From: Kiloniellales bacterium
GTDB taxonomy: Bacteria > Pseudomonadota > Alphaproteobacteria > Kiloniellales > JAKSDN01
Reading direction: 5' to 3'
Assembly: GCA_050330055.1 (NCBI GenBank)
Contig: JBHJOF010000078.1
Span: 21,300-85,299 of the forward strand
DNA: 64,000 nucleotides
In this document: one piece after another, positions 7,000 through 30,765 of the stretch
Numbering within the stretch: position 1 is the first letter of the stretch
Layout: each line of letters begins with the position of its first letter
The notes under the pieces: model-generated
What the model saw: only the letters and a program-made list of their open reading frames with translations
Databases searched by the model: none
Told to the model about the DNA's origin: nothing
Made by a program: the position numbers and the translations under genes

Positions 7000-7204
7000 C
7001 TAGTACCTGGAATCGCAAATGGGTGTTACGTGGCACCGGCCCTCATGCTTCGACAAGCTCAGCATGAGGCTTCGACAGGCTCAGCATGAGGGCCTCATCC
7101 TGAGCCTGCCTGCGCGAAGCCCCATGGCGCCATCGGGCTTCGCTTCGGCGAAGGCAGGTCGAAGGATGGGGCCCGACTCACGCTATTGCGATAGCTGGTA
7201 CTAG
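7000..7204 (+). mobile_element. MITE-like element copy A (205 bp), terminal inverted repeats CTAGTACC...GGTACTAG
   Basis: It is the reverse complement of 30633-30765 apart from a few substitutions and two insertions: a 22-bp tandem duplication of CTTCGACARGCTCAGCATGAGG and a ~50-bp nested palindrome (CCTGCGCGAAGCCC...GGGCTTCGC...GCAGG). The core is the FDKLSMR/LSLSKHE-type repeat. It has no coding capacity. Confidence 0.7.
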
Positions 7205-7414
7205 TGGCGCAAGGTCGTCACACGGGAACCGCCAGCGAACAGCGGTAACGGTGGCTGCGAGCCCGGGAACTGAACCTGCGGACCCTCGCCTGACTCCGAA
7301 TGATCAGAGTGCGCCGATTTCGGTAAAGCGGGTATCGGGTCCGCGACCAACAATAGGCGCCTTCCCGGATTCCCCCAAGGCGTCGGGAGTTTCGCTTTAC
7401 TCCGGTCTCCGCCC

Positions 7415-9259
7415 CTAGTCGACGATGTGGTAGACGGGAGCCTTCTCCATCTCCCACGTGCCGGAATGCCGGTCGTAGCGGGAGAGGGTGAAGCAGTGCC
7501 AATCGGTATCGTCGAGCTTCGGATGATCGGCCCGATAGTAGTAGCCCGGCCAGCGGGTTTCCTGGCGGAACAGGGTGTGCTGCGTGACGGACTCCGAGGC
7601 GAGGACCCGGTGGTGAAGCTCCCATGCCCGCTGTAGCTGATGAAGGTCCTCCGCACCGAGATGGTCGAGGTCCTCCTTCAGCATGCCGAGCAGCTCGAGC
7701 GCCCGGTTCAGCATCCATTCGTTGGTCGTGTAGTGGGAGCCGATTCCGCCGACGTACTCATCCATCAGCTTCTCGAGGCGCTGCAGACCATGGAGCGGCA
7801 GGATGTAGCTCGGCGAAACGGTTCCCGCGACGATCTCATTGCGGCCGACTCTGAAGGTCTCCAAGGGCTGGTAGACGACCTTTCTCAGATCTTCGTACTC
7901 GGCTTCGCTGAGTTGCGGCCGCTCGCCGCCCAGGTCGTTCACGTAGTTGACCGCCGCCTTGCCGGCGATGCGGCCCTCGGTGAAGGAGCCGGAGGAGAAC
8001 TTGTGGGCGGTGCCGCCGATGGTGTCGCCGGCGCCGAACAGCCCGTCGACGGTCATCATGCGGTTGTAGCCCCACTGGTAATCCGACGGGGCGTAGTCCG
8101 CCGGCCCGCTCGCCCAGGCGCCGGAACAGGTGGCATGGGAGCCCATGACGTAGGGTTCGGAGGTCGTGAGCTCGGGATTAATGTGCTTGGGGTCGATGTT
8201 CTGTGAGGCCCAGACCACCGCCTGCCCGATCGTCATGCCGAGAAAGTTCTCCCAGCCGACGGTCTCCTTGTGCGGATCCTGGAAGGCTTCCTTGGTCACC
8301 ATGCGGATCGGGCCGCGGCCGGCTTTGACCTCCTCCAGAATGGCGTGGTTCCGCAGGCAGGTCGGCACCGGGTGCCGGTCGATGTAATCCCCGACCAGAT
8401 TCTTGGTGTGCTCGTACCAGGTGGACTCGTACTCCTCGCCATATACGTTTTCGGTATAGGTCTTGAGGTGCAGGAAGTAGGCGCCGACCGGGCCGTAGCC
8501 GTCCTTGAAGCGGGTCAGGACGATACGGTTCTCCATCTGGGTCATCTTGGCGCCGGCCAGGATCGGCAAGGCGTAGGCGGAAGCGCTGCTCCAGGGCGCG
8601 TACCACGTGCGCCCCATGCCCTCGCCGACCGCGCGCGGCTTGAAGATGTGCGACGCGCCGCCGGCGCAGACAATGACGGCCTTGCCGCGGAACACGTAGA
8701 AGTCCCCGGTGCGGACGTTGAAGCCGACGGCCCCGGCAACCCGGTTGATCTTGGTCTTGTCCATCAGCAGGTGGGTGACCATGATCCGGTTGTAGACCTC
8801 GGTGGCCGCCTTGCGGGCGGCCTCGGCGACGATCGGCTTGTAGCTCTCGCCGTGGATCATGATCTGCCACTTGCCTTCCCGCTGGTAGCGCCCGGTCGCC
8901 GGGTCGCGCATGATGGGAAGGCCCCACTCCTCGAACTTGTGCACCGTGGAGTCGACGTGCCGGGCGATGTCGTAGCCGAGGTCCTCGCGCACCAGGCCCA
9001 TGAGATCGTTCCGGGCGTAGCGGACATGGTCCTCGGGCTGGTTCTCGTTCCACTGCATGCCCATGTAGCAATTGATCGCATAGAGCCCCTGGGCGACGGC
9101 GCCGCTGCGCTCGATATTCGCCTTCTCGACACAGACGATCTTGAGGTCGCGTCCCCAGTAGCGGGATTCATAGGTGGCCCCGCAGCCGGCCATGCCGCCG
9201 CCGATGACGAGGATGTCCGAATCGACGAAAATCGTCTTCCTGCGCGAGAACAGACCCAT
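7415..9259 (-). CDS. aprA: Adenylylsulfate (APS) reductase alpha subunit
   Basis: 614-aa flavoprotein with DILVIGGGMAGCGA at the N-terminus. Length and blocks are typical of AprA. Its start overlaps the aprB stop by 1 nt (TGATG). Confidence 0.93.
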   Translation of the reverse strand: MGLFSRRKTIFVDSDILVIGGGMAGCGATYESRYWGRDLKIVCVEKANIERSGAVAQGLYAINCYMGMQWNENQPEDHVRYARNDLMGLVREDLGYDIARHVDSTVHKFEEWGLPIMRDPATGRYQREGKWQIMIHGESYKPIVAEAARKAATEVYNRIMVTHLLMDKTKINRVAGAVGFNVRTGDFYVFRGKAVIVCAGGASHIFKPRAVGEGMGRTWYAPWSSASAYALPILAGAKMTQMENRIVLTRFKDGYGPVGAYFLHLKTYTENVYGEEYESTWYEHTKNLVGDYIDRHPVPTCLRNHAILEEVKAGRGPIRMVTKEAFQDPHKETVGWENFLGMTIGQAVVWASQNIDPKHINPELTTSEPYVMGSHATCSGAWASGPADYAPSDYQWGYNRMMTVDGLFGAGDTIGGTAHKFSSGSFTEGRIAGKAAVNYVNDLGGERPQLSEAEYEDLRKVVYQPLETFRVGRNEIVAGTVSPSYILPLHGLQRLEKLMDEYVGGIGSHYTTNEWMLNRALELLGMLKEDLDHLGAEDLHQLQRAWELHHRVLASESVTQHTLFRQETRWPGYYYRADHPKLDDTDWHCFTLSRYDRHSGTWEMEKAPVYHIVD

Positions 9260-9720
9260 CAGACCAGTCCTTGCTTGAGTCTATCCGGAGTCAATGCGGG
9301 CAGCTTATCGATGTTGAGTGCGTCCGGCTCGTGCGCGAGCTCCTGGGCCTTGAAAGCAGCAGGGCTCGGCGCCTCATATTCGGACGGCGACTTGATCGAT
9401 CCCCATGGCGTGGTGCGGATCGGAGAGACGAAATTCTTCTCGCGGCCGTCCCGGAACTTGATCTTCCAGGAAATCGTGCCCTTCTCGTCCTCGCGAAGCA
9501 CCCGAACGCTGTGGCCCAAGGGGGCGAAGTCGGCATAGCCGCGTACGTCAATCGCATTCTGCGGACAGGCCTTTACGCAGGAGTAGCATTCCCAGCACAT
9601 GTTGGGTTCGATGTTGTAGGCGCGGCGATAGGTCGTATCGATGTGCATGATGTCGGACGGGCAGATATCGACGCAATGTCCGCAGCCGTCGCAGCGAGTC
9701 ATGTAGACGAATGTCGGCAT
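9259..9720 (-). CDS. aprB: Adenylylsulfate reductase beta subunit (two [4Fe-4S] clusters)
   Basis: 153 aa starting MPTFVYMTRCDGCGHCVDICPSD, then CWECYSCVKACP, followed by the long AprB-type C-terminal tail. Confidence 0.93.
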   Translation of the reverse strand: MPTFVYMTRCDGCGHCVDICPSDIMHIDTTYRRAYNIEPNMCWECYSCVKACPQNAIDVRGYADFAPLGHSVRVLREDEKGTISWKIKFRDGREKNFVSPIRTTPWGSIKSPSEYEAPSPAAFKAQELAHEPDALNIDKLPALTPDRLKQGLV

Positions 9721-9775
9721 GATGTTCCGTTATCTCCCGTATCAAAACCAAGTCAGTCGGCGCATGGCGGGCCGG

Positions 9776-10561
9776 CTAGTAGTGTCGGGGCAGCCGGCGG
9801 GCGCTGCCGAGAATTTCGGGCTTGTCGGCTGGGCGTGGCAGGTTGCTTCTTGATTCGTTCGCCTCCGCCACGCGCTTCTGCAAGGCCGCCGCAGGCTTGA
9901 AGAACATGTGAGAAAACTTGGACCAAGGAACGGATCCAAAGAGCACGGTCGTGGCGATGAGGTACAAAGCGAGAAACACGGTCGTCCACCTGCTGTCAGC
10001 AGCCTGCAGCAAGGCCCAGATCAGGCCGAGCGTCGCGCTTGCCAGCAGCGAGAGGATGAACAGGTCGGCGCGAACGACGCGGAATGGCGAATTGCCCTCG
10101 GCGGCGACGTCGACTCGAATGAAGAACCAGAACCAGTATCCGCCGACACAGACCATCAGGGCGCCGATGTACCACAGCATTGGCAGGATAGCGGGCGTGG
10201 CGCTGGCCGTCGTCGGGTAGCCGAACACCATGATGACCGTCGTGATGACGTAGGCCAGGAACCCATACATGGTCAGGAGATGCGCGATCCGTCGCCGCGG
10301 ATTGCAGAACTCGCCGGACGTCGCAACGTCGACCGCGGCGGTTTGGATAGCCAGGCTCACCATGGTCCCGCCGCCGACTTCCCGGCTCCCTTTTCGCTTG
10401 GCGTTTCGCCAGTTGTCGAAGAAGTACCTGGCGCTCCCCTTGTGCACGATGTCGTACAGCGTGCCACCGGCGACCAGAAGGATCATGACGAGGACATAGG
10501 CCTGTATGACCCAGGGCGCTAAGGACGCAGAGAGCTCGGCGAAGGGATTGCTGGTGCCCAT
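9776..10561 (-). CDS. aprM: APS reductase membrane anchor AprM (NarI/HdrE-like, about 5 TM)
   Basis: 261-aa polytopic protein directly upstream of aprBA. The aprMBA order is that of sulfur-oxidiser-type APS reductases, where AprM takes the place of QmoABC. Confidence 0.75.
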   Translation of the reverse strand: MGTSNPFAELSASLAPWVIQAYVLVMILLVAGGTLYDIVHKGSARYFFDNWRNAKRKGSREVGGGTMVSLAIQTAAVDVATSGEFCNPRRRIAHLLTMYGFLAYVITTVIMVFGYPTTASATPAILPMLWYIGALMVCVGGYWFWFFIRVDVAAEGNSPFRVVRADLFILSLLASATLGLIWALLQAADSRWTTVFLALYLIATTVLFGSVPWSKFSHMFFKPAAALQKRVAEANESRSNLPRPADKPEILGSARRLPRHY

Positions 10562-11182: not shown

Positions 11183-11761
11183 TTAATAGTGATAGGTGGG
11201 CGGATCGACGCGGGGATGGAGCGGCAGATCGTGCCTCGCCAGATATTCGTGGGTTTCTTCCCGGCTCCAGCCGCTCAAGGGGTCGACCCGGAGCATCCGG
11301 CCCTCCTGGATCAATCGCGGCGTCGGAGCTTTCGGATAGGGCGCATGATAGGCGGCACTGATCCAGCACTCGAAACCTGCGAGCGACCTGTTCAGGTGCA
11401 CTTTGGTCTCGATCGTTCCGCCGCCCCAGATATCCGACAGAAGTTCCTCATAGTGGTCCTGATCGTTCGGAGCCATGTCGGCTTCGTCAGGTCCGGGATC
11501 GCGGATATCCGTCAGGCCGAGACGCCGAACGATCTGAGCGCGGTACTGGACGCTCTGCGGATACACGTAGGGCGCATGGCAGAATATGACCGGCACGGCG
11601 CGATCGATCTCGGCGGTCATCATTAGCACGGCCACGCTGCGTGCGCGCAGCGAGCTGGTCACTATGCATTGGCGCGGAAAGACGTCGATCAGGAGATGGC
11701 GCAATAGTGCCGATGCAGTCAGCTCTGCGGTCTCCCCCTGCAACTCCTCCACACGCAACAT
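11183..11761 (-). CDS. PAPS-reductase-fold (CysH-like) protein, degenerate, lacking the C-terminal catalytic Cys motif
   Basis: 192 aa. The layout resembles CysH (..IVTSSLRARSVAVLMM..PVIFCHAPYVYPQS..WISAAY..RVDPLSGWSREETHEYLARHDLPLHP). The protein ends about 10 residues after the LPxHP block, with no ECG(L/I)H or CC...CxxC tail. Confidence 0.6.
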   Translation of the reverse strand: MLRVEELQGETAELTASALLRHLLIDVFPRQCIVTSSLRARSVAVLMMTAEIDRAVPVIFCHAPYVYPQSVQYRAQIVRRLGLTDIRDPGPDEADMAPNDQDHYEELLSDIWGGGTIETKVHLNRSLAGFECWISAAYHAPYPKAPTPRLIQEGRMLRVDPLSGWSREETHEYLARHDLPLHPRVDPPTYHY

Positions 11762-11817
11762 TTTTGCTCCCGACGTACTTTTCGTGTCGGGCCAATCCGC
11801 TGATCGACCGCTCCATC

Positions 11818-11839
11818 TATATGATAATTAAAATATATT
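11818..11839. promoter_or_regulatory. 22-nt almost pure A/T tract (TATATGATAATTAAAATATATT) in the divergent cysH-like/sat promoter region
   Basis: It is the only strongly AT-rich patch in the 279-bp divergent intergenic region (11762-12040), so it is a likely shared promoter/UP or operator region. Confidence 0.3.
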
Positions 11840-12040
11840 GGGCGGTCACCAGGTTTTGTGTATCACTGCCGTTGGCAGTCGCGGTCTGGATCAAGTTCGA
11901 GGCCCGCCGGGAGTTCGGCTGGGTTTGGCCCGGATCTGCCATCTGCGGGTCCGTTATGGACCTGGTGTTCCTGGCCGTGCTCGAGACTGGGAGCGGTCGT
12001 CCAGCGACGCTCGAGAAGCCAGGCAGGGAGATGTCCAAGG

Positions 12041-13213
12041 ATGTCCATTCTGGTTCCGCCTCATGGCGGCGGCGCGCTAAGACCCTTGCTGCTTCCCAGA
12101 ACGGAGCGCGCCGACGAGCTCAAACGGGCTGAGAAGCTCACGAAGGTTCCCCTGAGCAGCCGTGAGGTCTCGGACCTGCTCATGCTTGCGATGGGCGCCT
12201 ACACTCCGCTTGATGGCTTCATGGGGAAGCAGGATTGGCAGAGCTGCTGCACTGACATGACGACAAGCGAAGGAACGTTCTGGCCTATACCCATAACGCT
12301 GTCCTGCGCCGAGGATATCGCCGGCGCAATCGGCATCGGTGACGAGGTCGCGCTGGTCGACGCGGCGAGCGGAGAAATCCTCGCGATCCAAACGGTGTCC
12401 GAAAAATATAGCATCGACCGCGAACTCGAATGCAAGGAGGTGTTCCGCACCACCGACACGGCCCATCCCGGCGTCCAGAAGGTCATGGAGCAGCCGCCGG
12501 TCAATCTGGCAGGGCCCATCGTGGCGCTGTCGGAGAGTCACTTCCCCGAGACCTACAACGGGCTCTATCACCGGCCAGCCGAAACCAGGGCGATGTTCGA
12601 GGCAAATGGATGGTCGACGGTGGCGGCGTTCCAGACCCGAAATCCGATGCACCGGAGCCACGAGTACTTGGCGAAGCTCGCCATAGAGGTATGTGACGGC
12701 GTGCTCATCCATCAAGTGCTTGGCGCATTGAAGCAGGGCGATATTCCAGCGCATGTCAGAGTGAACGCGATCAATGCGTTGGTCGAGAACTATTTCGCAC
12801 CTGGCACGGTGATCCAGGCCGGCTACCCGATCGAAATGCGCTATGCTGGTCCGCGCGAGGCCTTGCTCCACGCCGTGTTTCGCCAAAACTTCGGCTGCAC
12901 GCACCTTGTGGTTGGTCGCGACCATGCTGGGGTGGGGGACTACTACGGACCGTTCGATGCACATCATATCTTCGACACGCTTCCCGCCGGCAGCATGGAG
13001 ATCCGGCCGATAAAAGTCGACGTCACGTTCTTCTGCTACAAGTGCGAAGGCATGGCGACTGGCAAGACCTGTCCGCACGGCGCGGAGGATCGGCTCACGA
13101 TATCCGGCACGCGGCTACGCGAGATGTTTGCCGGCAGAGAAGCCATTCCAAAGGAGTTCAGCCGCAGAGAGGTGATCGCGGTGCTGCAAGCCTACTACGA
13201 CAGCCTTGGCTGA
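12041..13213 (+). CDS. sat: Sulfate adenylyltransferase (ATP sulfurylase), homo-oligomeric Sat type
   Basis: The track ORF was trimmed to [10 protein letters not shown]..., with AAGGA immediately before the ATG at 12041. Diagnostic blocks: [30 protein letters not shown], and the C-terminal CxxC...CPH zinc-ribbon-like part. Confidence 0.93.
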
Positions 13214-13221
13214 CGCAAAAC

Positions 13222-13974
13222 ATGATCATCGCCCAGATCAGCGACACCCACATCCTGGCCAAGTCGTCTGGCGAGGCGGTGGGCGCGAGCCGTGCCGAGA
13301 ACCTCAGGCGATGTGTCGCCGACATCAACCGACAGCGGGTCGACGTCGTGCTGCACACGGGAGACAGCGTGCATCAGAGCTCGGCGGAAGAGTACGTCCA
13401 TCTGCGTGAGCTCCTGGCGGAGCTGCGGGCACCGTTGTTCATGGTTCCCGGCAATCGCGACGGGCATGACGCGCTGCGCGCCGCCTTCGGCGACCTCTCA
13501 TATCTGCCGCTCAACGGTGATCTTCATTACGCGATCGAGGACCATCCGGTTCGACTCGTCGCGCTTGATTCCGTGGCGGCGGGAGAGCGGAAGGGCGTGT
13601 TCTGCGAGCGACGGCTCGCTTGGCTGCGGGGGACGCTGGCGAAGGAACCCAATCGGCCGACGATTCTATTCATCCATCACCCGCCTTTCGATATCGATCC
13701 CCACTATGTGGGCGGCTACCGCCGGCAGCAGGACGCGGAGGCGCTGGCGCGGCTGGTCGAAGATCATTCGCAGGTCGTACGGCTGCTGTGCGGGCACGTT
13801 CATTGTTCGCACCGTGAGCCCTGGGCGGGGACCGTTGCCACGACCATGCCCAGCGTCGCTGTGGATCTGCGAAAGGGCGTCGATGCGGCAGTCGGGGAAG
13901 CACCCTTGTACCTGCTGCATGTCACCGCATGCGACGGTAGCCTGGTAAGTTACGAGCGAGTCGTGACCCACTGA
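13222..13974 (+). CDS. Calcineurin-like metallophosphoesterase (CpdA/GpdQ class-III phosphodiesterase-like)
   Basis: Trimmed to MIIAQISDTHIL..., 8 nt after the sat stop. Motifs: DTH, HTGD, PGNRD (Arg where GNHD is usual), FIHHPP, CGHVHC. Confidence 0.85.
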   Translation: MIIAQISDTHILAKSSGEAVGASRAENLRRCVADINRQRVDVVLHTGDSVHQSSAEEYVHLRELLAELRAPLFMVPGNRDGHDALRAAFGDLSYLPLNGDLHYAIEDHPVRLVALDSVAAGERKGVFCERRLAWLRGTLAKEPNRPTILFIHHPPFDIDPHYVGGYRRQQDAEALARLVEDHSQVVRLLCGHVHCSHREPWAGTVATTMPSVAVDLRKGVDAAVGEAPLYLLHVTACDGSLVSYERVVTH

Positions 13975-14061: not shown

Positions 14062-14262
14062 CTATGTGCCGGGGTAAGGTTTCGTGCGGCGCTGGCCACA
14101 ACGGCGAGCCAAGGCCACGGCGCCGAGGAACAGCAGGACCACTAGCGGGCCGGACAGGAGGTTGAGCAGCCTTACGGTCTGACCCAGTACGTTCGCCTCC
14201 TTGTATGACACCTGGCGCGCCGCCAGCCCAAGCCCGAGCGCAGAGATGATCGGCGATCTCAT
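14062..14262 (-). CDS. Small hydrophobic protein (66 aa), hypothetical
   Basis: Strong SD (AAGGAGG, 7 nt before the ATG). One clear hydrophobic segment (LLSGPLVVLLFLGAVALA). No recognisable family. Confidence 0.35.
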   Translation of the reverse strand: MRSPIISALGLGLAARQVSYKEANVLGQTVRLLNLLSGPLVVLLFLGAVALARRCGQRRTKPYPGT

Positions 14263-21645: not shown

Positions 21646-21981
21646 ATGGGTTGGAAATACGTTTGCAAGGCCGATGAGCTGCAGGATCGCGGCCTGAAGC
21701 AGTTCGAGGTCGAGGGCGTGCCGATCCTGTTGGCGCGCCTGGGTGATGACTTCTTCGCCTACCCGCCGCTCTGCCCGCACCAGGAGGAGGTGCTGGCCGT
21801 CTCCGGCGTATGCGACGGCTCCACGCTCACCTGCACCAAACACCTCTGGCAGTGGGATATGCGCACCGGAAGCGAGATCGGATTGGCGGAAAAGCCGCTG
21901 CTCATGTACCAGGTGCGGCAGGACGGCAACGACGTCTCCGTCCTGATAGAGCAGGAGCTGAAGTATGACTATGACGATTGA
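21646..21981 (+). CDS. msmC: Rieske-type [2Fe-2S] ferredoxin, MsmC-like
   Basis: MGWKYVCKADEL..., with CPH at LCPHQEE and C-x2-H at CTKHLW. An alternative GTG start at 21598 overlaps the msmB stop. Confidence 0.78.
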   Translation: MGWKYVCKADELQDRGLKQFEVEGVPILLARLGDDFFAYPPLCPHQEEVLAVSGVCDGSTLTCTKHLWQWDMRTGSEIGLAEKPLLMYQVRQDGNDVSVLIEQELKYDYDD

Positions 21982-22131
21982 TCCGGCGGCGATGGCGTCG
22001 CTGGCGAGGCACTAGAACCCGGATGCGACGACGCTGGCGCCCTGCACGGAACGGCAGGCGCCCTCGCGGAGGTTCTGCAGCAATCACTCTCGCCCGCGCG
22101 GCGATTCCGCAGGGAGGCTGGAGGAGAGGCC

Positions 22132-23211
22132 ATGAAGGCCGTGGATGCCAGGCGCGGTGAACCGGCGATGAAGATCCGGGCCCGCACCAAGGAAGGCGAC
22201 TTCGCCTTCTCCTGCGAGCCGGGTGAGCGGATTCTCTACGCCGGCCTGCGTAACGGCGTGCCTCTGCCGTACGAATGCGCGACCGGCACCTGCGGCACCT
22301 GCAAAGCGCGCGGCAATGGCGCTGCGATCGACGAGCTGTGGCGCGAGGCGCCGGGCCGCTCCTTCCTCAAGCCGGAGCGCGGCGAGTTCCTGATGTGCCA
22401 GTCGGTCAGCGGCGGAAGCTGCGAGATCGAGGTGCCGGCCCGGTTGCAGCAGGCGCCGATGGCGGCCATCACGCCCGACTACCGCCGCGGCCGGATCAGC
22501 GGCATCCGGCGCTTGACCCACGACGTCATTTTCTTCGAGCTCGGCCTCGAGCGGACGATGCGCTACCACCCCGGCCAGTTCGTGGTGATGCGGGCGCCGG
22601 GCGTCGAGGGCTTTCGCGCCTACTCGATGGTCAATCACGAAGCGGAGACCGATTTTCTGCAGTTCGTGGTCAAGCGCAAGCCTCATGGCGCCTTCTGCGA
22701 CTGGCTGTTCGGCTGGCCCGCCGAGGGCACGGAGGTCGAAATATTCGGGCCGCTCGGCCGCGCCGTGTTCGACCCGGCGGAGGGCAAGAACCTGCTGGCG
22801 ATCGCCGGCGGATCGGGCATTGCCGGCATCATGGCGATCCTGGCCCGGGCCCGGCAAGGCGGCTACTTCGCCGCGCATAAGGGGGCCGTCTTCTTCGGCG
22901 TGCGTGGCTTGGCCGACGGCTTCTTCCTGGACGAGCTCGCTGACCACGTGGCCGCGGCGGCGGGGAACTTGAGCGTCACGGTCGCGCTCTCGCACGAAGA
23001 CCCGCCCGGCGGCGCGTACCCGGGCTATCCGAGTCTCGCCGCGGCCAGCGGCTTCGTGCATGTCGTGGCCGCCCAGAGCATTGCCCGGCATAGGGACAAT
23101 GCCGTCGCCTTTGTCGCCGGTCCACCGCCCATGGTCGATGGCGCCCTGCGTATGCTGATCATCGAGGCGCGCCTGCCGGCGGGCGACATCCGCTACGACA
23201 AGTTCGGCTGA
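22132..23211 (+). CDS. msmD: Plant-type [2Fe-2S] ferredoxin-NAD(P)H reductase component, MsmD-like
   Basis: N-terminal CATGTCGTC...C ferredoxin motif, an FNR-like flavin block (RAYSM), and an NAD block (LLAIAGGSGIAG). GGAGGAG sits 5 nt upstream of the ATG. Confidence 0.85.
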   Translation: MKAVDARRGEPAMKIRARTKEGDFAFSCEPGERILYAGLRNGVPLPYECATGTCGTCKARGNGAAIDELWREAPGRSFLKPERGEFLMCQSVSGGSCEIEVPARLQQAPMAAITPDYRRGRISGIRRLTHDVIFFELGLERTMRYHPGQFVVMRAPGVEGFRAYSMVNHEAETDFLQFVVKRKPHGAFCDWLFGWPAEGTEVEIFGPLGRAVFDPAEGKNLLAIAGGSGIAGIMAILARARQGGYFAAHKGAVFFGVRGLADGFFLDELADHVAAAAGNLSVTVALSHEDPPGGAYPGYPSLAAASGFVHVVAAQSIARHRDNAVAFVAGPPPMVDGALRMLIIEARLPAGDIRYDKFG

Positions 23212-23227: not shown

Positions 23228-23674
23228 ATGGTTGACAGTGCCGACTTGACCGAGCGCCTGCAGAGGGCCGACTTCCTGCGCGACGTATCACCCGCCAGCC
23301 TCGCCAAGATCGCGCGCATCGCCGAGCGCGAGAGCTTCGCCGAGGGCGATGCGATCTATCAGCTCGGCGATCCGGCCGAGGACCTCTTCATCGTCGAGTC
23401 GGGCCGTATCCGCTTCGCGCTCGGCGTCGGCAACCGCGGCGGGACCAGTGGCTCGGTCATTTCCCAGGGCCAGGTGGTCGGCTGGGCCGCCGTGCTCGAG
23501 GACCAGCCGCGCCTGCTGGCCACGGCCGTTTGCCTCGAGGACTCCCAGGTCATCCGGATCAACGGCGCCAAGCTGCTCGCCGTCTTCGACCACGATACGA
23601 CCTCGGGCTATGCGGTGATGCGGCGCCTCGCCACCATGATCGCGCACGACCTGACCGAGGTGCTGACTGCTTGA
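23228..23674 (+). CDS. Stand-alone cyclic-nucleotide-binding (CAP effector) domain protein, no DNA-binding domain
   Basis: 148 aa, starting 16 nt after msmD. Typical blocks FAEGDAIYQLGDPAEDLFIVESGRIRF and GQVVGW.. are present. It ends before any HTH. Confidence 0.78.
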   Translation: MVDSADLTERLQRADFLRDVSPASLAKIARIAERESFAEGDAIYQLGDPAEDLFIVESGRIRFALGVGNRGGTSGSVISQGQVVGWAAVLEDQPRLLATAVCLEDSQVIRINGAKLLAVFDHDTTSGYAVMRRLATMIAHDLTEVLTA

Positions 23675-24121
23675 GCGCCGCGTCCGACCGCCGCCGGCCT
23701 ACAGTCGGATGTCTCACGACGGTGTGATGATGCAGTCCGGCGCGTCGATACCTAGCGTCAATGAAACAATATTGAGCATGAAATTGACGCTTCCTCGCTT
23801 CCCTAGCACGCTTTGTCGTTCGCTGGTGACGGTGGGGACTGCGGCCACGCCCGTGGCGGATGGGCAACGGGCAGGGCGGCCGTCCTTAGACCCAAATGTC
23901 AACTTCCATCGATAACAGTCGATGATGAATCGTCCGGCCACGACAATCGGGCCCATAAACGGGGTCCGCGACACTAGGGAGGGACAAATATGGGCGCAGG
24001 GTTTGGCCCTGATGCGTACGACGAAAAAACCCGTCGCATGATTCAGGGGATGATCGAAGCCGAGCAGCAGGCACTCGCCGCACGCAAGGCCGAGCTCGAG
24101 GACTGCGAGTGCAAGGAGGGC

Positions 24122-25384
24122 ATGTTTCCCAATCCGGGCCGGCGCGGCCTCCTGATGGGAGCGGCTGCCCTGGGCGGTGCGCTCTTGGCCGGGCGCGCGG
24201 CGCAGGCGGATGCGCCGCCCGGCGCCATCGAGTATCCCGAGCTGCCGGATCCGACCAAGGCACTGGGCCGGCCGGTCAATGCCAACGGCGGCTATGGAAC
24301 GCGCGCGCAGTTCGAATCCGAGGTGCGCTGGCGTTTCCCGACGGCCACCGAGGAAACCTCCTGGACCATGACGCCGCTCGACAAGAGCCAGGGCATCATC
24401 ACGCCGTCCGGACTGCACTTCGAGCGCCATCACGGCGGCGTGCCGGTGATTGATCCGGCCAAGCACAGGCTGCTGGTGCACGGCGTGGTGAAGCAGCCCA
24501 AGATGTTCACCATGGCCGATCTGAAGCGCTATCCCTCGGTCTCGCGCATGTACTTCATCGAGTGCTCGGGCAACGGCCTGACGGAATGGAGCAAGCCGAC
24601 ACTGAAGACGGTGCAGGGTACGCATGGGCTGACCAGCACCTCGGAGTGGACCGGGATTCAGCTTTCGACCATTCTTGCCGAATGCGGCCTGCAGGACGGT
24701 GCCGCCTGGGTCCTGGCCGAGGGCGCCGACGCAGCGGTCATGACCCGCAGCATTCCGCTCGACAAGTGCATGGGTGATGCCATTCTGGCCTTCGGCCAGA
24801 ACGGCGAGATGCTGCGGCCCGAGCAGGGCTATCCGCTGCGCCTGCTGCTGCCGGGCTGGGAAGGCAACACGCACATCAAGTGGCTGCGCCGCCTCGAAGT
24901 CAGCGACAAGCCCTTCATGAGCCGCGAGGAGACCTCCAAGTACACGGACCTGCTGGCCGACGGCAAGGCGCGGCAGTTCTCCTTCACCATGGAGGCCAAG
25001 TCGGTCATCAACTTCCCGTCGGGCGAAATGAAGCTGCCCGGACCGGGCTTCTACGAGATTACCGGCCTCGGCTGGTCCGGGCGCGGCCGGGTCGAGCGCG
25101 TCGAGGTCTCGACGGATGGGGGCAAGTCGTGGGGCGTGGCTTCGCTGCAGGACCCCATCATGCCGATCTGCCACACGCGCTTCCGCTTCCCCTGGGTGTG
25201 GGACGGGCAGCCGACCGTGCTGCAGAGCCGTTGCACTGACGAGACGGGCTACGTGCAGCCGACCTTGAAGCAGTTGGTCGAGGTGCGCGGCCTGAACGGC
25301 CCGATCGGCTCGATCTATCACCTGAACGCCATCCAGAGCTGGGCGGTGGCAAGCGATGGGAGCGTCAGCAATGTCCACGGGTAA
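24122..25384 (+). CDS. Molybdopterin sulfite dehydrogenase catalytic subunit (SoxC/SorA-like), Tat-exported
   Basis: Tat signal GRRGLLMGAAALGGALLAGRAAQA. Family blocks: FERHHGG, YFIECSGNG, GYPLRLLLPGWEGN, and a C-terminal dimerisation domain. The start was chosen at 24122 (AAGGAGG 3 nt upstream). An in-frame alternative at 23990 also has a strong SD. Confidence 0.88.
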   Translation: MFPNPGRRGLLMGAAALGGALLAGRAAQADAPPGAIEYPELPDPTKALGRPVNANGGYGTRAQFESEVRWRFPTATEETSWTMTPLDKSQGIITPSGLHFERHHGGVPVIDPAKHRLLVHGVVKQPKMFTMADLKRYPSVSRMYFIECSGNGLTEWSKPTLKTVQGTHGLTSTSEWTGIQLSTILAECGLQDGAAWVLAEGADAAVMTRSIPLDKCMGDAILAFGQNGEMLRPEQGYPLRLLLPGWEGNTHIKWLRRLEVSDKPFMSREETSKYTDLLADGKARQFSFTMEAKSVINFPSGEMKLPGPGFYEITGLGWSGRGRVERVEVSTDGGKSWGVASLQDPIMPICHTRFRFPWVWDGQPTVLQSRCTDETGYVQPTLKQLVEVRGLNGPIGSIYHLNAIQSWAVASDGSVSNVHG

Positions 25385-25946
25385 GATGAAGCTGGGCCTG
25401 ACCGCGCTTGTCGCTGGCTTGGCCCTGGGTGCCAGTCACGCCTGGTCGGGTGGCGGCTATCAGGTCACCTATGGTTTCGGCCAGCCGGCGAGCGAGGCCG
25501 AAATCGCCGCCCTGGCGATCGCGATTCCGCCTGACGGCGAGCACCTGCCGCCGGGCAGCGGCACCTGGGAACAGGGTAAGCAGGTTTACGTCGAGAAGTG
25601 CGCGGCCTGCCATGGCGAGCAACTCGAGGGCGTGAAGGAGACCGGCGGCGATCCCCTGATCGGCGGCCGTGGCTCGCTCGACAGCGGCAGCCCGAAGAAG
25701 ACGGTCGAGAGCTTCTGGCCCTATGCCACAACGGTATTCGATTTCGTGCGCCGGGCCATGCCCTTCGCCGAGCCGGGCTCGCTCACCGACGACGAGGTCT
25801 ATGCCGTGACAGCCTACATTCTCGCCGAGGGCGACATCATCGCCAAGGACCAGATGATGAACGCGGAGACGCTGCCCAAGGTGCAGATGCCGAACCGGGA
25901 CGGCTTCATCCCGGATCCTCGGCCGGACGTCTTCAACTACAACTAA
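25371..25946 (+). CDS. Mono-haem cytochrome c subunit of the sulfite dehydrogenase (SoxD/SorB-like)
   Basis: Signal peptide MSTGKMKLGLTALVAGLALGASHA and a single CAACH haem motif. It overlaps the end of the Mo-subunit gene. Confidence 0.85.
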   Translation: MSTGKMKLGLTALVAGLALGASHAWSGGGYQVTYGFGQPASEAEIAALAIAIPPDGEHLPPGSGTWEQGKQVYVEKCAACHGEQLEGVKETGGDPLIGGRGSLDSGSPKKTVESFWPYATTVFDFVRRAMPFAEPGSLTDDEVYAVTAYILAEGDIIAKDQMMNAETLPKVQMPNRDGFIPDPRPDVFNYN

Positions 25947-26056: not shown

Positions 26057-26209
26057 GCAAAGTCCGTTCACGCGTGATCACCGTACAGGTCCTCATGCTT
26101 CGACAGGCTCAGCATGAGGGGCTTGTGCTGATCCAGCACAAGCCCTCCTCACCCTGAGCTTGTCGAAGGGTGAGGAACGCTACGCCGATATAATCTGAGC
26201 GGACTATGC
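26057..26209. repeat. Second MITE-like element sharing the CATGCTTCGACAGGCTCAGCATGAGG / CTGAGCTTGTCGAAGG core but with different termini
   Basis: The ends form an imperfect inverted repeat: GCAAAGTCCGTTCA at the left end and TGAGCGGACTATGC at the right end. It sits exactly between the terminator and the stop of the convergent panB-like gene. Confidence 0.5.
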
Positions 26210-26210
26210 A

Positions 26211-27107
26211 CTATTCGGCGGCAGTGCCGAGCTGCTTCAGCTTCGAGCCCCACTTCATCTGCTCAGCGAATTTGCGCAGCTCGTCGGCCGACATGTAGAC
26301 GGTATGCTCAGGTCCGGGATAAGTGCGGCTGCGAACGTCGTCCATGTAGCGCGTGATCACGTCTTCCATGATCGGGATCAGGTCGGTGTAGATCTTGGAG
26401 TGGCGCGGTACGTGCTCTTCCCAGAGATGGAACAGGTCAGAGCTGATGATGTGCACGCCATGCGCCTTGTTGCCGGCGCCCAAGCTGATGACCGGTACCG
26501 GCAGGGTCTCGGTCAGGTACTCGCAGACCTCCTCGGTCGTCACCTCGCAGAGGATCGAGAAGCAGCCGGCGTCGACCATGGCCAGCGCATCATCGATCAG
26601 CTCCTTGGCCCGGTCCGAGGTCTTGCCCTGTGCCACGAAGCCGCCGAGCTGCGGCATGCGCATCGGCGTGATACCGATGTGTCCCTGGACCGGGATGCCG
26701 GCCTTGACGATCGCCTCGATGTTCCGGGCGTGGTGCTGGTTGCCCTCACACTTCATCACTTCCGCGTTGGCCTCGTGGCAGAAGCGGCCGGCGTTCTCGA
26801 CCGCCTGCTCCGGCGAGATGTGGAAGCTCCAGTAGGGCATGTCGACCATGCGCAGGCCGTATTTGCTGCCGCGGTCGATCGCTTTCGACATCATCATGAC
26901 CTCGTCGAAGCTGACCGTCACCGTGCTCTGGTGGCCGAACAGGATCATGCCGCCGGTGTCCGACACGCAGAGGATGTCCATGCCGAGCCGGTCGGCGACC
27001 ACCGCGGTGCGATAGTCGTAGACCGCCATCTGGGTGATCGCCTCGCCCTCGTGCATCTTCTTCATGAGGCTGTTGATCGTGACTTTCTTTCTTTTCGTTT
27101 CGGCCAT
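26211..27107 (-). CDS. 3-methyl-2-oxobutanoate hydroxymethyltransferase family protein (PanB-like paralogue, longer C-terminus)
   Basis: Trimmed to MAETKRKK... (GGGAGGA 5 nt upstream). PanB-type blocks: ILCVSDTGGM, VDMPYWSF, KCEG, PVQGHIGITPM. It is 298 aa, versus the roughly 265-275 aa I recall for canonical PanB. Confidence 0.8.
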   Translation of the reverse strand: MAETKRKKVTINSLMKKMHEGEAITQMAVYDYRTAVVADRLGMDILCVSDTGGMILFGHQSTVTVSFDEVMMMSKAIDRGSKYGLRMVDMPYWSFHISPEQAVENAGRFCHEANAEVMKCEGNQHHARNIEAIVKAGIPVQGHIGITPMRMPQLGGFVAQGKTSDRAKELIDDALAMVDAGCFSILCEVTTEEVCEYLTETLPVPVISLGAGNKAHGVHIISSDLFHLWEEHVPRHSKIYTDLIPIMEDVITRYMDDVRSRTYPGPEHTVYMSADELRKFAEQMKWGSKLKQLGTAAE

Positions 27108-27368
27108 GGTGTCCTCCCTGGCGTGTCCGCACGAGATGCTTTGCACGGCCGACTGCAGGCGTATCGTCCCGGCGTGGCCGGCCATGGTTGTCAGCAAAGA
27201 AAGATAGGCAGAAACTATAAAAGCTTCGGCTCTTTCTTGCCATTATTAAGAAAACTATCTAGACGACACTACATCAACTGGCGCAGAGAGAACAACTCCC
27301 CTGCTTATATTTATTGACTATAGTTCGTTCACTGGAGACTATTAAGCGGCCAGCCTGTGAGATGGGCG

Positions 27369-28394
27369 TCAGAGGGGGCGCCAGTCAGCGCTCCAGTCGC
27401 CCCGGGGCCGCCGCTTCTCGGTGTCGTAGAACGGCAGAGGCACGACCTCCAGGTCCCGGAACAGTCCGCAGGAGTCCGAGAGACGACGACCTGTCTGGGC
27501 ATCGGCTGGAAGGACGTAGCCGAGAGCCAGAACGCCGTTGGCGAGCGGGCTCCAGCAGGCCGAGGTGATGGCGATGCAGCCGGGCTCCTGAGGCGGGCTC
27601 AAGGTTTTGGGTGGCTGCCACAGCAGGGGCCGTTCGTCGGCTGCGCGGCGGACGCAGACCAGGCGCATTTGCGGCGCTGCAGCGGCCGGACTCGCGAACT
27701 GCGCCAAGCCCGCTTCCTCGGCGGTGACCGGCAAGGCGAACTCGTTGACGAAGAGCGCCAGGCCCGCCTCGATGCGCAGACGGTCGGCTGCTGCGACGCC
27801 GGCCGGCCGGGCCCGCTCGGCCAGCTGCGCCCAAACCGCTTCGGCCTGCGCGCGCGGCAGCACCAGCTCGAAGCCGCGTTCGCCGCTGTAGCCCAGCCGG
27901 CCGACCCGGCAGGACACGCCGGCCACCTCGGCCTCGCCGTGGCCGAAGTAGGGGAGGCGAGACAGACGTTCGAGGTCCGCCAATCCCTCGAGCGCGCGCA
28001 GGGCGTTCGGTCCCTGCAGGGCATAGATGGCGGTATCCTCGGTCAGATCTTCGAAGCTGTCGGTGCGCGCCAGCTCTGCCAGCTCTGCGAGATCGGTGGG
28101 CCGGCCGGTCATGACCTCGAAGCTACCGTCGCCCAGGTTCCAGATCGTCAGGTCGGATACGAGCGAGCCGTCCGGACGGGCGTGCAGCGCGTAGGCGATG
28201 CGTCCGGGTGCCAGCCGATCGAAGGATCGCTTGGTGAAGCCGCTCAGGACGGCGGCGGCGTGCGTCCCGGTGATGCGTGCCCGCGCGACGAAGGAGAAGT
28301 CGAACAGGGCGCAGTCGTTGCGGCAGGCCGCGGCCTCGCCGTCGGGGTCGCCGTAGTCGGCGACGAAGCGGCGTCCGAAGGGCAGGGCCGCCAT
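27369..28394 (-). CDS. GcvT-family aminomethyltransferase / folate-binding protein
   Basis: Trimmed to MAALPFGRRF... (ATG at 28394, 5 nt after the tauE-family stop). Blocks: ALFDFSFVARARITG and RLGYSGERGFELVLP. Confidence 0.82.
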   Translation of the reverse strand: MAALPFGRRFVADYGDPDGEAAACRNDCALFDFSFVARARITGTHAAAVLSGFTKRSFDRLAPGRIAYALHARPDGSLVSDLTIWNLGDGSFEVMTGRPTDLAELAELARTDSFEDLTEDTAIYALQGPNALRALEGLADLERLSRLPYFGHGEAEVAGVSCRVGRLGYSGERGFELVLPRAQAEAVWAQLAERARPAGVAAADRLRIEAGLALFVNEFALPVTAEEAGLAQFASPAAAAPQMRLVCVRRAADERPLLWQPPKTLSPPQEPGCIAITSACWSPLANGVLALGYVLPADAQTGRRLSDSCGLFRDLEVVPLPFYDTEKRRPRGDWSADWRPL

Positions 28395-28399: not shown

Positions 28400-29161
28400 T
28401 CAGCCGCCGATCAGGCGCCAGCCGATCTGCACGAGCAGCCAGAGGCCGACCAGGATCAGGACCTGCGCCACGATGCGTCGCAGCAGCGCGAGCGGCAGCT
28501 TGTGCGCGAGCTGTGCGCCGATCGCCGAGCCCAGTGCGAGCCCGGTGGCAATCGTCGCGCCCAGCACCAGGTCGAGGCTGCCGTAGATCAGGTTTCCGGC
28601 CGTCGCCAGCGCGGCTATCGGCAGCTGGATCGCCTGGCTCAGTCCGATCGCGGTCAGGATCGGCAGCTCGAGCCAGATCAGCAGCGGCACCAGCACCAGG
28701 GGGCCGCCGGTTCCACTTAGCGCCGAGGCGAAGCCGGTGACGGCGCCGGTGGCCAGCAGCCAGGGGCGGGCGAAGCCGGACTCCGATCCATCCTTCTTCG
28801 CCTCGGGTCGCCAGGCGCGGATGCCCGCCATCAGGATCAGCGCCGCGATGACGAGCTCGAGCAGCGTCGCGTTCACGACGTTGCTCGCCCAGGAGCCGGC
28901 AAAGGCGGCCGGCATGGCGCCGGCGCAAAGCCAGATCGCCATGGGCCAGCGGATCGAGCCGTGCCGCGCGAAGATCACCGCGCCGATCAGGCCGGTCAAG
29001 AGATAGCTGAACATGGCGGCGGCGATCGCGGTGCGGATGTCGATGCCGCCCAGGTAGATCAGGGTCGGCACCAGCAACACGCCGCCGATCCCTATGCAGC
29101 CGATCAGCCCACCGACAAGGATGGCGAAAAGTGCAAGCGCCAGGAGCGCGGCCGTGGTCAT
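28400..29161 (-). CDS. TauE/SafE-family (DUF81) sulfite/sulfonate exporter
   Basis: 253 aa, about 7-8 TM, with the internally duplicated Gly-rich pattern typical of the family (GIGGVLLVP ... GTGGPLVLVP). Confidence 0.82.
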   Translation of the reverse strand: MTTAALLALALFAILVGGLIGCIGIGGVLLVPTLIYLGGIDIRTAIAAAMFSYLLTGLIGAVIFARHGSIRWPMAIWLCAGAMPAAFAGSWASNVVNATLLELVIAALILMAGIRAWRPEAKKDGSESGFARPWLLATGAVTGFASALSGTGGPLVLVPLLIWLELPILTAIGLSQAIQLPIAALATAGNLIYGSLDLVLGATIATGLALGSAIGAQLAHKLPLALLRRIVAQVLILVGLWLLVQIGWRLIGG

Positions 29162-29283: not shown

Positions 29284-29384
29284 TGAAAGTGCCATGATAG
29301 CCGAACTGTAAGCGGCTGGAGAAGACACCCTAAATCTAGCCGCTGCCGACAACAAAAACTAAGAAAAACGTCAGGAGGGAAGCC

Positions 29385-30335
29385 ATGTTTTTCAGGCAGT
29401 TCGAGTATCTTGTTGCGGTGATAGAGGAGCAACACTTCGGGCGTGCGGCGGAGCGCTGCCACGTCTCGCAGCCAAGCCTGTCGAACGGCATCAAGCAGCT
29501 CGAGTTGGAGCTCGGCGTCCCGATCTTTCGCCGCGGGCAGCGCCTGCATGGCTTGACGGCGGAAGGCAAGCGGGTCGCCGAATGGGCGCGGCGGGTGCTG
29601 GCTCACCGCGACGCCATGCGCGACGAGCTGGCGGCCATGCACGAAAACCTGCAGGGCAACCTGCGCCTCGGCGCCATGCCGACCTGCTCGCCAGTGCTGC
29701 CGCTCTTCATCAGGCTGCTGCAGGAGCATCACCCCGGAGTGCGCGCCGACATTCAGTTCATCGGCATCGAGGCCATGAAAGTCGGCCTCAGCAACTACTC
29801 GCTTGACGTCGGCTTCACCTATCTGAACGAGGACGATCTGCAGCGCTGCAAGACGTTGCCTGTCTACGTCGAGCGGCTAAGCCTGCTGGTGCCTGACAAC
29901 GAGAGATTTCACGACCGCACCTCGGTCACTTGGCGTGAGGCCGTCGAGTTGCCGCTCGCCCTACTGCGCAGCTCGATGCATGAGCGCCACATCTTCGACG
30001 CGACCTTCAAGAAGGTCGGCGCCCGTCCTCGGCCGAACGTCGAATCGGAATCGATCCTGCACCTCATGTTCCACGTCATGTTCGGCCAGCTCTCGGCCAT
30101 CGTACCGGCGCACTTCGCGCTGCTGCCTGGAGCCTTCCCGGGCACCCGCGTGCTCGACCTGGTCGAGCCGGTGATCTCCCGCGAGGTCGGCCTGGTCTGG
30201 GCCGAGGGCGATCCCACCATGCCCATGGCCAAGGTCATGGTTTCCATCGTCGAGGAAGCGCGCAAGTCCGGCGAGCTGCAGCGCCGCCTGGGCGAGTTCG
30301 CCATCGGCAACGAGGTCGAGGCGATCCCCGCATAG
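29385..30335 (+). CDS. LysR-family transcriptional regulator
   Basis: N-terminal wHTH (FRQFEYLVAVIEEQHFGRAAERCHVSQPSLSNGIKQLE) plus a LysR substrate-binding domain. It is divergent from the tauE/gcvT-like operon. Confidence 0.9.
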   Translation: MFFRQFEYLVAVIEEQHFGRAAERCHVSQPSLSNGIKQLELELGVPIFRRGQRLHGLTAEGKRVAEWARRVLAHRDAMRDELAAMHENLQGNLRLGAMPTCSPVLPLFIRLLQEHHPGVRADIQFIGIEAMKVGLSNYSLDVGFTYLNEDDLQRCKTLPVYVERLSLLVPDNERFHDRTSVTWREAVELPLALLRSSMHERHIFDATFKKVGARPRPNVESESILHLMFHVMFGQLSAIVPAHFALLPGAFPGTRVLDLVEPVISREVGLVWAEGDPTMPMAKVMVSIVEEARKSGELQRRLGEFAIGNEVEAIPA

Positions 30336-30632
30336 CACCGCAGACCCCTCTGGGGCGTTGATTTGAGATAGATCAATGACGATCCGAGGCGGCTGAGCGA
30401 GCTTGGCAGCCTGGCACGGGCTGCGAGCCGCAGCACCATGGATGGGGTGCAAACCAATGGAAACGATGCGTAGCAAAGTCGCAAAACCGGCCTGCTTGTC
30501 TGCGAGCGAGGCAGGTTGCGCGCAATGCAGTGCAGCCTATTCCTGCTACGACCGGCGCATGGGCCGGCAGCATCTCTTGTCGGCGCCGATTGCGCTGATA
30601 CTGTTGCTGATCATCGGTATCGCCAGCCAAGT

Positions 30633-30765
30633 CTAGTACCAGCTATCGCAATAGCGTGAGTCGGACCCCATCCTTCGACAGGCTCAGGATGAGGCCCTCA
30701 TGCTGAGCTTGTCGAAGTATGAGGGCCGGTGCCGCGTAGCACCCATTTGTGATTCCCGGTACTAG
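30633..30765 (-). mobile_element. MITE-like element copy B (133 bp), inverted relative to copy A
   Basis: Same termini (CTAGTACC...GGTACTAG). Its reverse complement aligns by eye with 7000-7204 along its whole length, minus the two insertions. Confidence 0.7.

Follow-up and report, generated by a model that had tools for sequence, protein, structure and literature searches.

Described methanesulfonate gene clusters and the Kiloniellales locus

Atmospheric oxidation of dimethylsulfide yields methanesulfonate as a major product, and the genetic basis of its breakdown is understood in few of the organisms that degrade it. The classical gene cluster, msmEFGH-msmABCD, is represented by Methylosulfonomonas methylovora M2 and by a metagenomic locus, P0003; its oxygenase genes lie in the order A-B-C-D, divergent from the genes of an ABC importer with an NMT1-type binding protein. 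A larger version occupies a 20.3-kb segment of 'Candidatus Filomicrobium marinum' strain Y (KM879220), which encodes LysR, TauE/SafE, a GcvT-like protein, 3-methyl-2-oxobutanoate hydroxymethyltransferase, SoxC, SoxD and ABC proteins together with msmHGFE and msmABCD (PMC4433239, Table 1). Here we describe a further relative, found in 64,000 nucleotides of a Kiloniellales bacterium (assembly GCA_050330055.1, contig JBHJOF010000078.1, positions 21,300 to 85,299 of the forward strand; the whole of this stretch is referred to as the window). It is a block of 23,428 bp (7205-30632) between two inverted copies of a miniature inverted-repeat transposable element (MITE), in which msmABCD is accompanied by a divergent TAXI-TRAP importer and by aprMBA and sat, and it is quite probably a native-looking chromosomal methanesulfonate supra-operon, a variant of the published msm cluster.

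From msmABCD to lysR, over its right-hand 11 kb, the block corresponds to the published accessory set, as it is listed for Filomicrobium: both loci have a long-spacer MsmA, msmABCD, and LysR, TauE, GcvT-like, PanB-like, SoxC and SoxD genes, with nearly equal gene sizes (tauE is 762 bp in both), although soxCD of the window is inverted relative to tauE-gcvT-panB (PMC4433239). Where Filomicrobium has the MsmEFGH ABC importer and further ABC genes, the window has TAXI-TRAP; the 20.3-kb segment lists no aprMBA, sat, TAXI-TRAP or gene for a cyclic nucleotide (cNMP)-binding protein, and no flanking MITEs are reported for it. The P0003 locus shares with the window the A-B-C-D order and its divergence from the importer genes, and has tauE downstream; it differs in its importer, and no apr or sat, SoxCD or folate enzyme gene lies within the 15.7 kb retrieved. 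For SAR116, aprABM with sat has been proposed to oxidize sulfite, and some genera also have msmA, the two gene sets being found in the same genera and not as a cluster (PMC8547437).

The original prediction for this DNA held that msm genes had not been reported as one unit with adenylylsulfate reductase, Sat, a TAXI-TRAP importer and tetrahydrofolate (THF) enzymes. For the THF enzymes this fails, since Filomicrobium has them (PMC4433239); for TAXI-TRAP and the aprMBA and sat linkage it stands, as our literature search found no paper linking methanesulfonate with TAXI or TRAP, or msm with apr and sat as one unit. By that search, what is new in the locus is the TAXI-TRAP importer and the linkage of aprMBA and sat to msm, the remainder being mostly already published.

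Gene content and proposed pathway

Proteins of the window were assigned to families with Pfam and NCBIfam profiles and their curated cut-offs. The 21 genes of the block were defined by a choice of open reading frames (ORFs) guided by G+C content at third codon positions (GC3), together with gene calls on an identical contig (L001) of a metagenome-assembled genome (MAG). Nearly all of the earlier gene calls are borne out at the family level, and four genes were absent from the earlier list: those for a PAPS-reductase-like protein (11183-11761) and a CpdA-like protein (13222-13974), and two small ORFs.

The families present make up the coherent methanesulfonate-to-sulfate cluster that had been predicted, with both sulfite routes and a TauE exporter. 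In the pathway that we propose, methanesulfonate would enter through the divergent TAXI-TRAP system, a step favored with some reserve. MsmABCD, by family a three-component Rieske monooxygenase, would hydroxylate it, and the product, following the chemistry in the literature, would collapse to formaldehyde and sulfite. The C1 unit may be handled by the GcvT-like and PanB-like folate enzymes, which are conserved among msm clusters. Cytoplasmic sulfite could be converted to adenosine 5'-phosphosulfate (APS) by AprBA, anchored by AprM, and APS by Sat to sulfate and ATP; as an alternative sink, sulfite could be exported by TauE and oxidized in the periplasm by a SoxCD-type dehydrogenase exported through twin-arginine translocation (Tat), the direction of both routes being presumed. 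Control would be exerted by LysR and possibly by a lone cNMP-binding protein.

The oxygenase

19803-21038, plus strand: msmA, methanesulfonate monooxygenase hydroxylase alpha subunit (Rieske motif CPH-X26-CMFH; 82% identity to MsmA of the classical locus)
21101-21601, plus strand: msmB, hydroxylase beta subunit (SnoaL_4 / Ring_hydroxyl_B; operon position)
21646-21981, plus strand: msmC, Rieske-type ferredoxin (PF00355; CPH-X17-CTKH)
22132-23211, plus strand: msmD, Fer2-FAD-NAD reductase (PF00111, PF00970, PF00175)

What defines MsmA is the length of the spacer in the Rieske motif CXH-Xn-CXXH, 26 residues compared with 16-18 in other oxygenases, and the long spacer is present in all proven methanesulfonate degraders (PMC4433239). 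In the window MsmA the motif lies at residue 85 and has the 26-residue spacer, which is also found in MsmA of four other loci (L004, L008, L017 and L030). The closest non-self matches are 89% and 82% identical, the second being MsmA of the classical msmEFGH-msmABCD-tauE metagenomic locus, named methanesulfonate monooxygenase large subunit by JGI. A domain search finds the four components at 19803-23211, arranged A-B-C-D, and the reductase has a plant-type 2Fe-2S domain; a structure search found no solved MsmA structure. Judged by its sequence, the oxygenase is of the true MsmA type, and the predicted msmABCD-like enzyme groups with MsmA by both its spacer and its identity to the classical protein.

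MsmA-like proteins with a short, 17-residue spacer are encoded in L013 (3336-4511), L019 (2613-3788) and L023 (2-1120), with the gene order A-B-D-C. Their TAXI partners belong to the clade (67-75% identical to the window TAXI protein) that also accompanies the long-spacer enzymes, and two of the short-spacer proteins, in L013 and L019, also share SoxCD, TauE, GcvT-like and PanB-like partners. Methanesulfonate activity of the short-spacer type is unproven (PMC4433239); because of the shared TAXI clade and partners, the gene neighborhoods suggest a C1-sulfonate substrate for these proteins too.

The TAXI-TRAP importer

15570-17528, minus strand: TRAP fused permease of the TAXI-partner type (TIGR02123, 361 bits against a cut-off of 321)
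17761-18843, minus strand: divergent TAXI-family solute-binding protein, proposed methanesulfonate receptor (PF16868, 56 bits against a cut-off of 27)

The presence of a TAXI-TRAP system, as predicted, is confirmed by PF16868 and TIGR02123 matches above cut-off and by a TAXI fold, and the fused Q-M permease gene lies directly downstream of the binding-protein gene. The binding protein falls below the cut-off of TIGR02122 (55 against 84 bits), and phmmer finds no match for it among solved structures in the PDB at E≤0.01. A structural model built on 32 homologues has a mean predicted local distance difference test score of 88, and its top seven Foldseek matches are all entries or chains of solved TAXI binding proteins (target-normalized template-modelling scores of 0.74-0.81), with the sulfonate-binding proteins TauA and SsuA ranking far behind. 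On this model the protein is a divergent TAXI member with a confirmed fold, since it is below the TIGR02122 cut-off while the TAXI fold matches best. The solved TAXI proteins are those of Thermus thermophilus (1US4/8U79), Vibrio cholerae (VC0430, 8S4J/9IBO; VCA0144, 9IBP) and Ehrlichia chaffeensis (4DDD); they share with the window protein an identical fold and a fused TRAP permease partner, and differ from it in sequence (16-17% identity).

A homologue search places the protein in a TAXI subfamily of 43 protein clusters, all from metagenomes or MAGs. Scanning JGI metagenomes and mapping the block proteins onto the contigs gave 14 loci with TAXI homologues of 64-75% identity. Nine TAXI loci have at least 1 kb of sequence upstream, and in seven of these (L013, L014, L016, L017, L018, L019 and L023) msm genes and the lone cNMP gene adjoin the TAXI gene. 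A tenth locus, L024, is a very short contig on which the cNMP-binding gene is present. L011 has no msm genes in 14 kb, and TauE, formate-THF ligase, a second TauE and a Crp regulator are encoded upstream of its TAXI gene. From the conserved neighborhood in seven of the nine informative loci, we consider it on balance likely that the TAXI-TRAP system imports methanesulfonate.

More distant TAXI relatives (40-56% identical) have no msm linkage. One of them is in a TAXI-TRAP-TauD-thiamine pyrophosphate (TPP) enzyme row, and another has TauE, a TPP enzyme and Pta on its contig, so that the clade may have a broader association with sulfonates; the TPP-type genes are called Xsc-like by domain architecture. 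The TAXI homologues near TauD, Xsc-like TPP-type, TauE and Pta genes in L031 and L033 have 40-54% identity (Ga0394879_0007134 and k141_309119).

One divergent TAXI clade is repeatedly tied to msm clusters. If its protein binds methanesulfonate, this would be the first sulfonate-specific TAXI system and a better environmental marker than msmE for degraders that are currently missed, and the pairing of the clade with short-spacer oxygenases makes methanesulfonate use by the latter directly testable. We give the MITE bracket lesser weight than this clade and its pairing with both MsmA types.

Genes for proposed sulfite oxidation and export

7415-9259, minus strand: aprA, adenylylsulfate reductase alpha subunit (TIGR02061, 956 bits against a cut-off of 642)
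9259-9720, minus strand: aprB, adenylylsulfate reductase beta subunit (TIGR02060, 201 bits against a cut-off of 136; PF12139)
9776-10561, minus strand: AprM-like membrane anchor (about five hydrophobic segments; weak similarity to QmoC/TcuB membrane domains)
11183-11761, minus strand: phosphoadenylylsulfate (PAPS)-reductase-like protein, 192 amino acids, C-terminally short, possibly a remnant (PF01507; PRK02090 positions 15-200 of 244, below cut-off)
12041-13213, plus strand: sat, sulfate adenylyltransferase (ATP sulfurylase; NF003166, 497 bits against a cut-off of 387; start as in the L001 gene call)
13222-13974, plus strand: CpdA/SpdA-like metallophosphoesterase, 8-bp gap after sat (PF00149; NF008359 below cut-off)
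23990-25384, plus strand: SoxC-type Mo sulfite dehydrogenase with the twin-arginine signal GRRGLLMGAAALGGALLAGRAAQA (TIGR04555, 581 bits against a cut-off of 420)
25371-25946, plus strand: SoxD-like mono-haem cytochrome c with one CAACH motif and a signal peptide (domain search and sequence)
28400-29161, minus strand: TauE/SafE sulfite exporter family protein (PF01925, 131 bits)

AprM-type AprBA is the form reported in sulfur oxidizers and marine heterotrophs. The predicted aprMBA and sat are recovered, with TIGR02061, TIGR02060 and NF003166 all above cut-off; the third component was called as an AprM-like membrane protein with libraries that hold no dedicated AprM model, and it has an 80% identical homologue adjoining aprBA in L017. 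The PAPS-reductase-like ORF has no cysteine near its C-terminus, and the part that it lacks holds the catalytic cysteine in CysH. GC3 reaches its minimum for the block (0.74-0.76) in the interval 11183-13974, where long non-coding gaps also occur, a pattern compatible with a module junction there.

The predicted Tat-exported Mo enzyme proves to be of the SoxCD type, by the TIGR04555 match, the twin-arginine signal and the cytochrome c partner. Its signal (GRRGLLMG...AQA) consists of an RR motif, a hydrophobic stretch and then AQA, and the true start of SoxC is probably near residue 45. The PF01925 match likewise substantiates the TauE/SafE sulfite exporter.

Folate enzymes and regulators

26211-27185, minus strand: PanB-like 5,10-methylene-THF:2-oxoacid hydroxymethyltransferase paralogue (PF02548; TIGR00222, 211 bits against a cut-off of 208)
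27369-28394, minus strand: GcvT-family folate-binding protein, not GcvT itself (PF01571; below equivalog cut-offs)
29385-30335, plus strand: LysR-family regulator, divergent from the tauE operon (PF00126, PF03466)
23228-23674, plus strand: lone cNMP-binding-domain protein of 148 amino acids without a helix-turn-helix (domain search)

These four calls agree with those made earlier. The PanB-like protein has homologues of 70-78% identity in other msm clusters. A lone cNMP protein of about 145-157 amino acids adjoins msmD or msmC in clusters of the TAXI and MFS types (L008, 13315-13788; L013, 6447-6842; L017, 5290-5700; L019, 5654-6010) and is found in neither the classical ABC-type cluster nor Filomicrobium nor Methylobacterium nodulans. 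It may serve as a dedicated regulator or as an accessory subunit. A CRP/FNR box had also been predicted. Three TTGAT-N4-ATCAA sites occur, at 14459, 14680 and 30363, each with one mismatch, and as about 0.8 such sites are expected by chance we reject the box as being at about chance frequency. Rfam, at gathering thresholds, reports no riboswitch or other RNA in the window.

Related clusters and apparent module exchange

The most similar architecture that we found is that of L017 (Ga0209399_10000446), where a long-spacer MsmA, a TAXI gene divergent from msmA, aprA (90% identical)-aprB-aprM, and GcvT-like, cNMP and msmDCBA genes lie within 11 kb. It differs from the window in module order, in its MsmA (63% identical) and in having no MITE, and the 12 kb retrieved include no sat, SoxCD, PanB-like or TauE gene; sat is present in no other msm locus retrieved. 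Stellaceae loci have LysR, FolD, PanB-like, TauE, an MFS transporter, msmABC and cNMP-msmD, with an aprM homologue at the edge, about 9 kb from msmA. Plasmid pMNOD01 of M. nodulans ORS 2060 (L030, NC_011892.1, 89843-119069) encodes a long-spacer MsmA of 62.7% identity, msmBCD, TauE, a Mo oxidoreductase and a cytochrome c. This module has fdhF and an MFS transporter gene as neighbors and lies between the IS630-like ISMno19 and two copies of IS66. It differs from the window in being plasmid-borne, in its MFS transporter, in having full-length insertion sequences (IS) and not MITEs, and in lacking apr, sat and TAXI-TRAP. The RefSeq annotation of this MsmA is only 'aromatic ring-hydroxylating dioxygenase subunit alpha'.

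Gene order is different in every related cluster, and sequence identities form a mosaic: MsmA of the window has 82% identity to the protein of the ABC-type cluster and only 58-63% to its counterparts in TAXI-type clusters, whereas for the window TAXI protein the identity to its counterparts in the latter is 67-75%. Given the shuffled order and mosaic identities, the cluster seems to be put together from modules that can be exchanged, namely an importer, an oxygenase, sulfite sinks and C1 enzymes. In this locus and its metagenomic relatives the msm oxygenase is combined with interchangeable importers (ABC, MFS and TAXI-TRAP) and interchangeable sulfite sinks. Since the TAXI-TRAP and apr linkages recur with shuffled order in other metagenomic clusters, they belong to a variant of the msm cluster that is spread across the lineage, and are not peculiar to this island.

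MITE copies and target sites

7000-7204, plus strand: MITE copy L, 205 bp, no ORF, with 22-nt and 50-nt insertions relative to copy R (repeat search, alignment)
30633-30765, minus strand: MITE copy R, 133 bp, inverted relative to copy L, with C-TA-...-TA-G ends (repeat search, alignment)
26085-26134, no strand assigned: palindromic fragment GGTCCTCATGCTTCGACAGGCTCAGCATGAGGGGC, like a repetitive extragenic palindromic (REP) element, a partial third copy of the MITE internal module between the convergent soxD and panB-like genes (repeat search)

The near-identical inverted copies described originally, with two insertions and 23.4 kb between them, are confirmed by alignment: three collinear inverted segments join them in the repeat search, and 127 of the 133 shared positions (95.5%) are identical in a global alignment. 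Neither copy contains an ORF with a family match, and each folds into a long hairpin. Their terminal inverted repeats (TIRs), GTACC(N)GGAATCGCAAATGGGTG, are about 26 nt long and imperfect, matching at 20 of 26 positions; a degenerate 26-nt TIR pattern has exactly four matches in the 64 kb, which are the four element ends, with none expected from 100 shuffles.

IS630-family elements insert at CTAG with duplication of TA. Both copies end C-TA-[GTACC...GGTAC]-TA-G, each with its own TA inside CTAG, and their sequences are consistent with IS630-style MITE copies with a CTAG target and TA duplication. When one genome of each of 185,579 species was scanned (the source genome being outside this set), the TIR pattern yielded one related TIR, in a Stellaceae MAG (L003) whose one available end also shows the C-TA...TA-G architecture. 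A plasmid search gave no TIR match or cognate IS, and the MITE is in none of the related clusters retrieved. ISMno19 of M. nodulans, annotated as IS630-like, has the same C-TA-G end architecture; we rejected it as the parent IS, because its TIR sequence has no homology to that of the MITE.

CTAG is strongly under-represented in the window, with 47 sites compared with about 204 expected from base composition, which leaves an IS630-type element fewer targets. Eleven unoccupied intergenic CTAG sites occur between position 1 and 36.6 kb, ten of them inside the block. The internal fragment at 26085-26134 may be a multi-copy REP-like element in this genome, because a same-strain Logan metagenome contig (L002) ends within it.

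Origin of the block and alternative readings

Copy R is identical in a second MAG, GCA_964470315.1, which carries the only other copy of the locus that we found. Its contig of 23,633 bp spans approximately 8919-32551 of the window and is identical bar nine mismatches in 21.2 kb (99.96%). We rejected the reading that this contig is nothing but the island, cut off in assembly at the two MITEs, as the sequence runs through the right MITE into the same right flank. A search for an empty site found no exact matches of the two flank proteins on record; for rubrerythrin, the closest homologues reach no more than 78% identity and lie on 2-kb contigs, and Tistlia and a TARA contig showed only that rubrerythrin is a member of the nos cluster. 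Codon usage does not separate the block genes from the 29 others (p=0.99 for GC3; p=0.34 for synonymous-codon likelihood), and foreign origin by composition is rejected on this basis, the difference in total G+C being only small.

The original prediction saw the block as a self-contained, possibly mobilizable island. The bracket is the one positive sign of this: the 64-kb window has no transposase, integrase or conjugation gene and no credible tRNA attachment site, codon usage is native, the TA duplication is uninformative and related clusters have no MITE. In the synteny comparison that had been proposed, the related clusters retrieved lack the MITE and have a shuffled gene order, and the closest flank homologue is 78% identical and on a 2-kb contig. 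It is also unlikely, in our judgement, that the two copies form a composite transposon of 23.8 kb between outer ends, moved in trans by an IS630-family transposase or inverted through the 133-bp repeats. Such a composite would account for two inverted copies of 95.5% identity exactly at the functional boundaries, with outermost ends that are a valid inverted TIR pair, for the ten unoccupied intergenic CTAG targets inside, and for the mosaic and patchy distribution of msm clusters; the M. nodulans msm-tauE-sulfite dehydrogenase module between IS630-like and IS66 elements is in keeping with it. Cargo-moving composites bounded by two TIR copies are documented (TIME-COMPs, PMC13367494; MITEAba12, PMC6382973; integron mobilization units, PMC3575428), so that a mobile block would extend a known kind, although the cargo here is 23.4 kb, the TA duplication uninformative and the known context single. 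The absence of a transposase from the window and of the MITE from related clusters, the single related TIR among 185,579 species genomes, the lack of a cognate IS in plasmids, the native codon usage and the finding that the only other copy of the locus is in a 99.96% identical strain with the same right junction all speak against it. As each MITE has its own C-TA...TA-G, separate insertion is equally consistent, and the TA duplication does not distinguish one composite from two insertions. Documented MITE composites mostly carry a few kb of resistance cargo and have diagnostic target duplications or several insertion contexts. The fuller proposal, that a 23.8-kb MITE composite mobile in trans or flipping delivers the whole methanesulfonate-to-sulfate pathway with the first sulfonate-specific TAXI-TRAP system, seems to us quite unlikely; if true, no other MITE composite would be known with a catabolic cargo of nearly that size. 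Most likely, the MITEs are two separate insertions in long intergenic gaps at the cluster edges, where they mark its boundaries.

Two further alternatives concern the pathway. The oxygenase and importer might serve another sulfonate, such as a short alkanesulfonate, as a general sulfite-yielding desulfonation unit. The pairing of the same TAXI clade with short-spacer proteins of unproven methanesulfonate activity (PMC4433239), and the distant TAXI relatives beside TauD or TPP-type and TauE genes typical of C2-sulfonate pathways, would agree with this; the window MsmA, however, has the long spacer of every proven methanesulfonate degrader and 82% identity to the classical protein, and the conserved partners are C1 and folate enzymes (GcvT-like and PanB-like, with FolD and FTHFS in relatives) rather than C2 enzymes, which makes another substrate very unlikely. 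That aprMBA-sat is an unrelated neighbor for assimilatory or reductive sulfate activation, outside the methanesulfonate pathway, would suit the lower coding density and GC3 (0.74-0.82) of the 9.3-15.3 kb sub-region, the truncated PAPS-reductase-like gene and orphan ORFs within it, and the lack of sat in the other msm loci retrieved. We think this highly improbable, given that aprABM directly adjoins gcvT-like-cNMP-msmDCBA in L017, that the Stellaceae loci have an aprM homologue at their edge, that AprM-type AprBA is the form reported in sulfur oxidizers and marine heterotrophs, and that the SAR116 proposal assigns aprABM and sat to sulfite oxidation in a group with msmA in some genera (PMC8547437).

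Several observations weigh against a native methanesulfonate supra-operon as we have drawn it. The solved TAXI proteins of known ligand among the fold matches all bind glutamate, whereas a sulfonate is suggested for the window protein by its genomic context. Only the AprM-type anchor and gene context point to the oxidative direction of AprBA and Sat. Total G+C of the block genes is slightly lower than that outside (0.643 compared with 0.670, p=0.004). Both MITE copies lie exactly at the two functional boundaries despite 11 free intergenic CTAG sites; by a naive, post hoc calculation, the chance of both falling in the two boundary gaps is 1/78 over all intergenic sites, or about 1/10 over those outside operons. 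A placement with a chance of about 1-10% is suggestive, not compelling, of some link between the MITEs and the history of the block.

Flanking genes and minor features

14062-14262, minus strand: 66-amino-acid ORF with one hydrophobic segment and no family match (family search)
14774-15304, plus strand: 176-amino-acid ORF with sub-threshold matches only (family search)

ARAGORN calls a tRNA-Ser(GGA) at 39149-39233, inside the ORF of a nos-cluster ABC permease (38835-39599); Rfam reports no tRNA there at the gathering threshold, and the call is therefore probably spurious. As originally described, the flanks are functionally unrelated to the block. On the left are the hopanoid genes hpnL/K/I, with HpnL, HpnK and HpnI above cut-off, and on the right a rubrerythrin-like gene (31259-32176) lies divergent from nosR-nosZ (32355-36582). 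A rubrerythrin/ferritin-like gene divergent from nosR also belongs to the nos cluster of Tistlia consotensis and to that on a TARA Oceans contig (L026 and L028), being conserved in all three.

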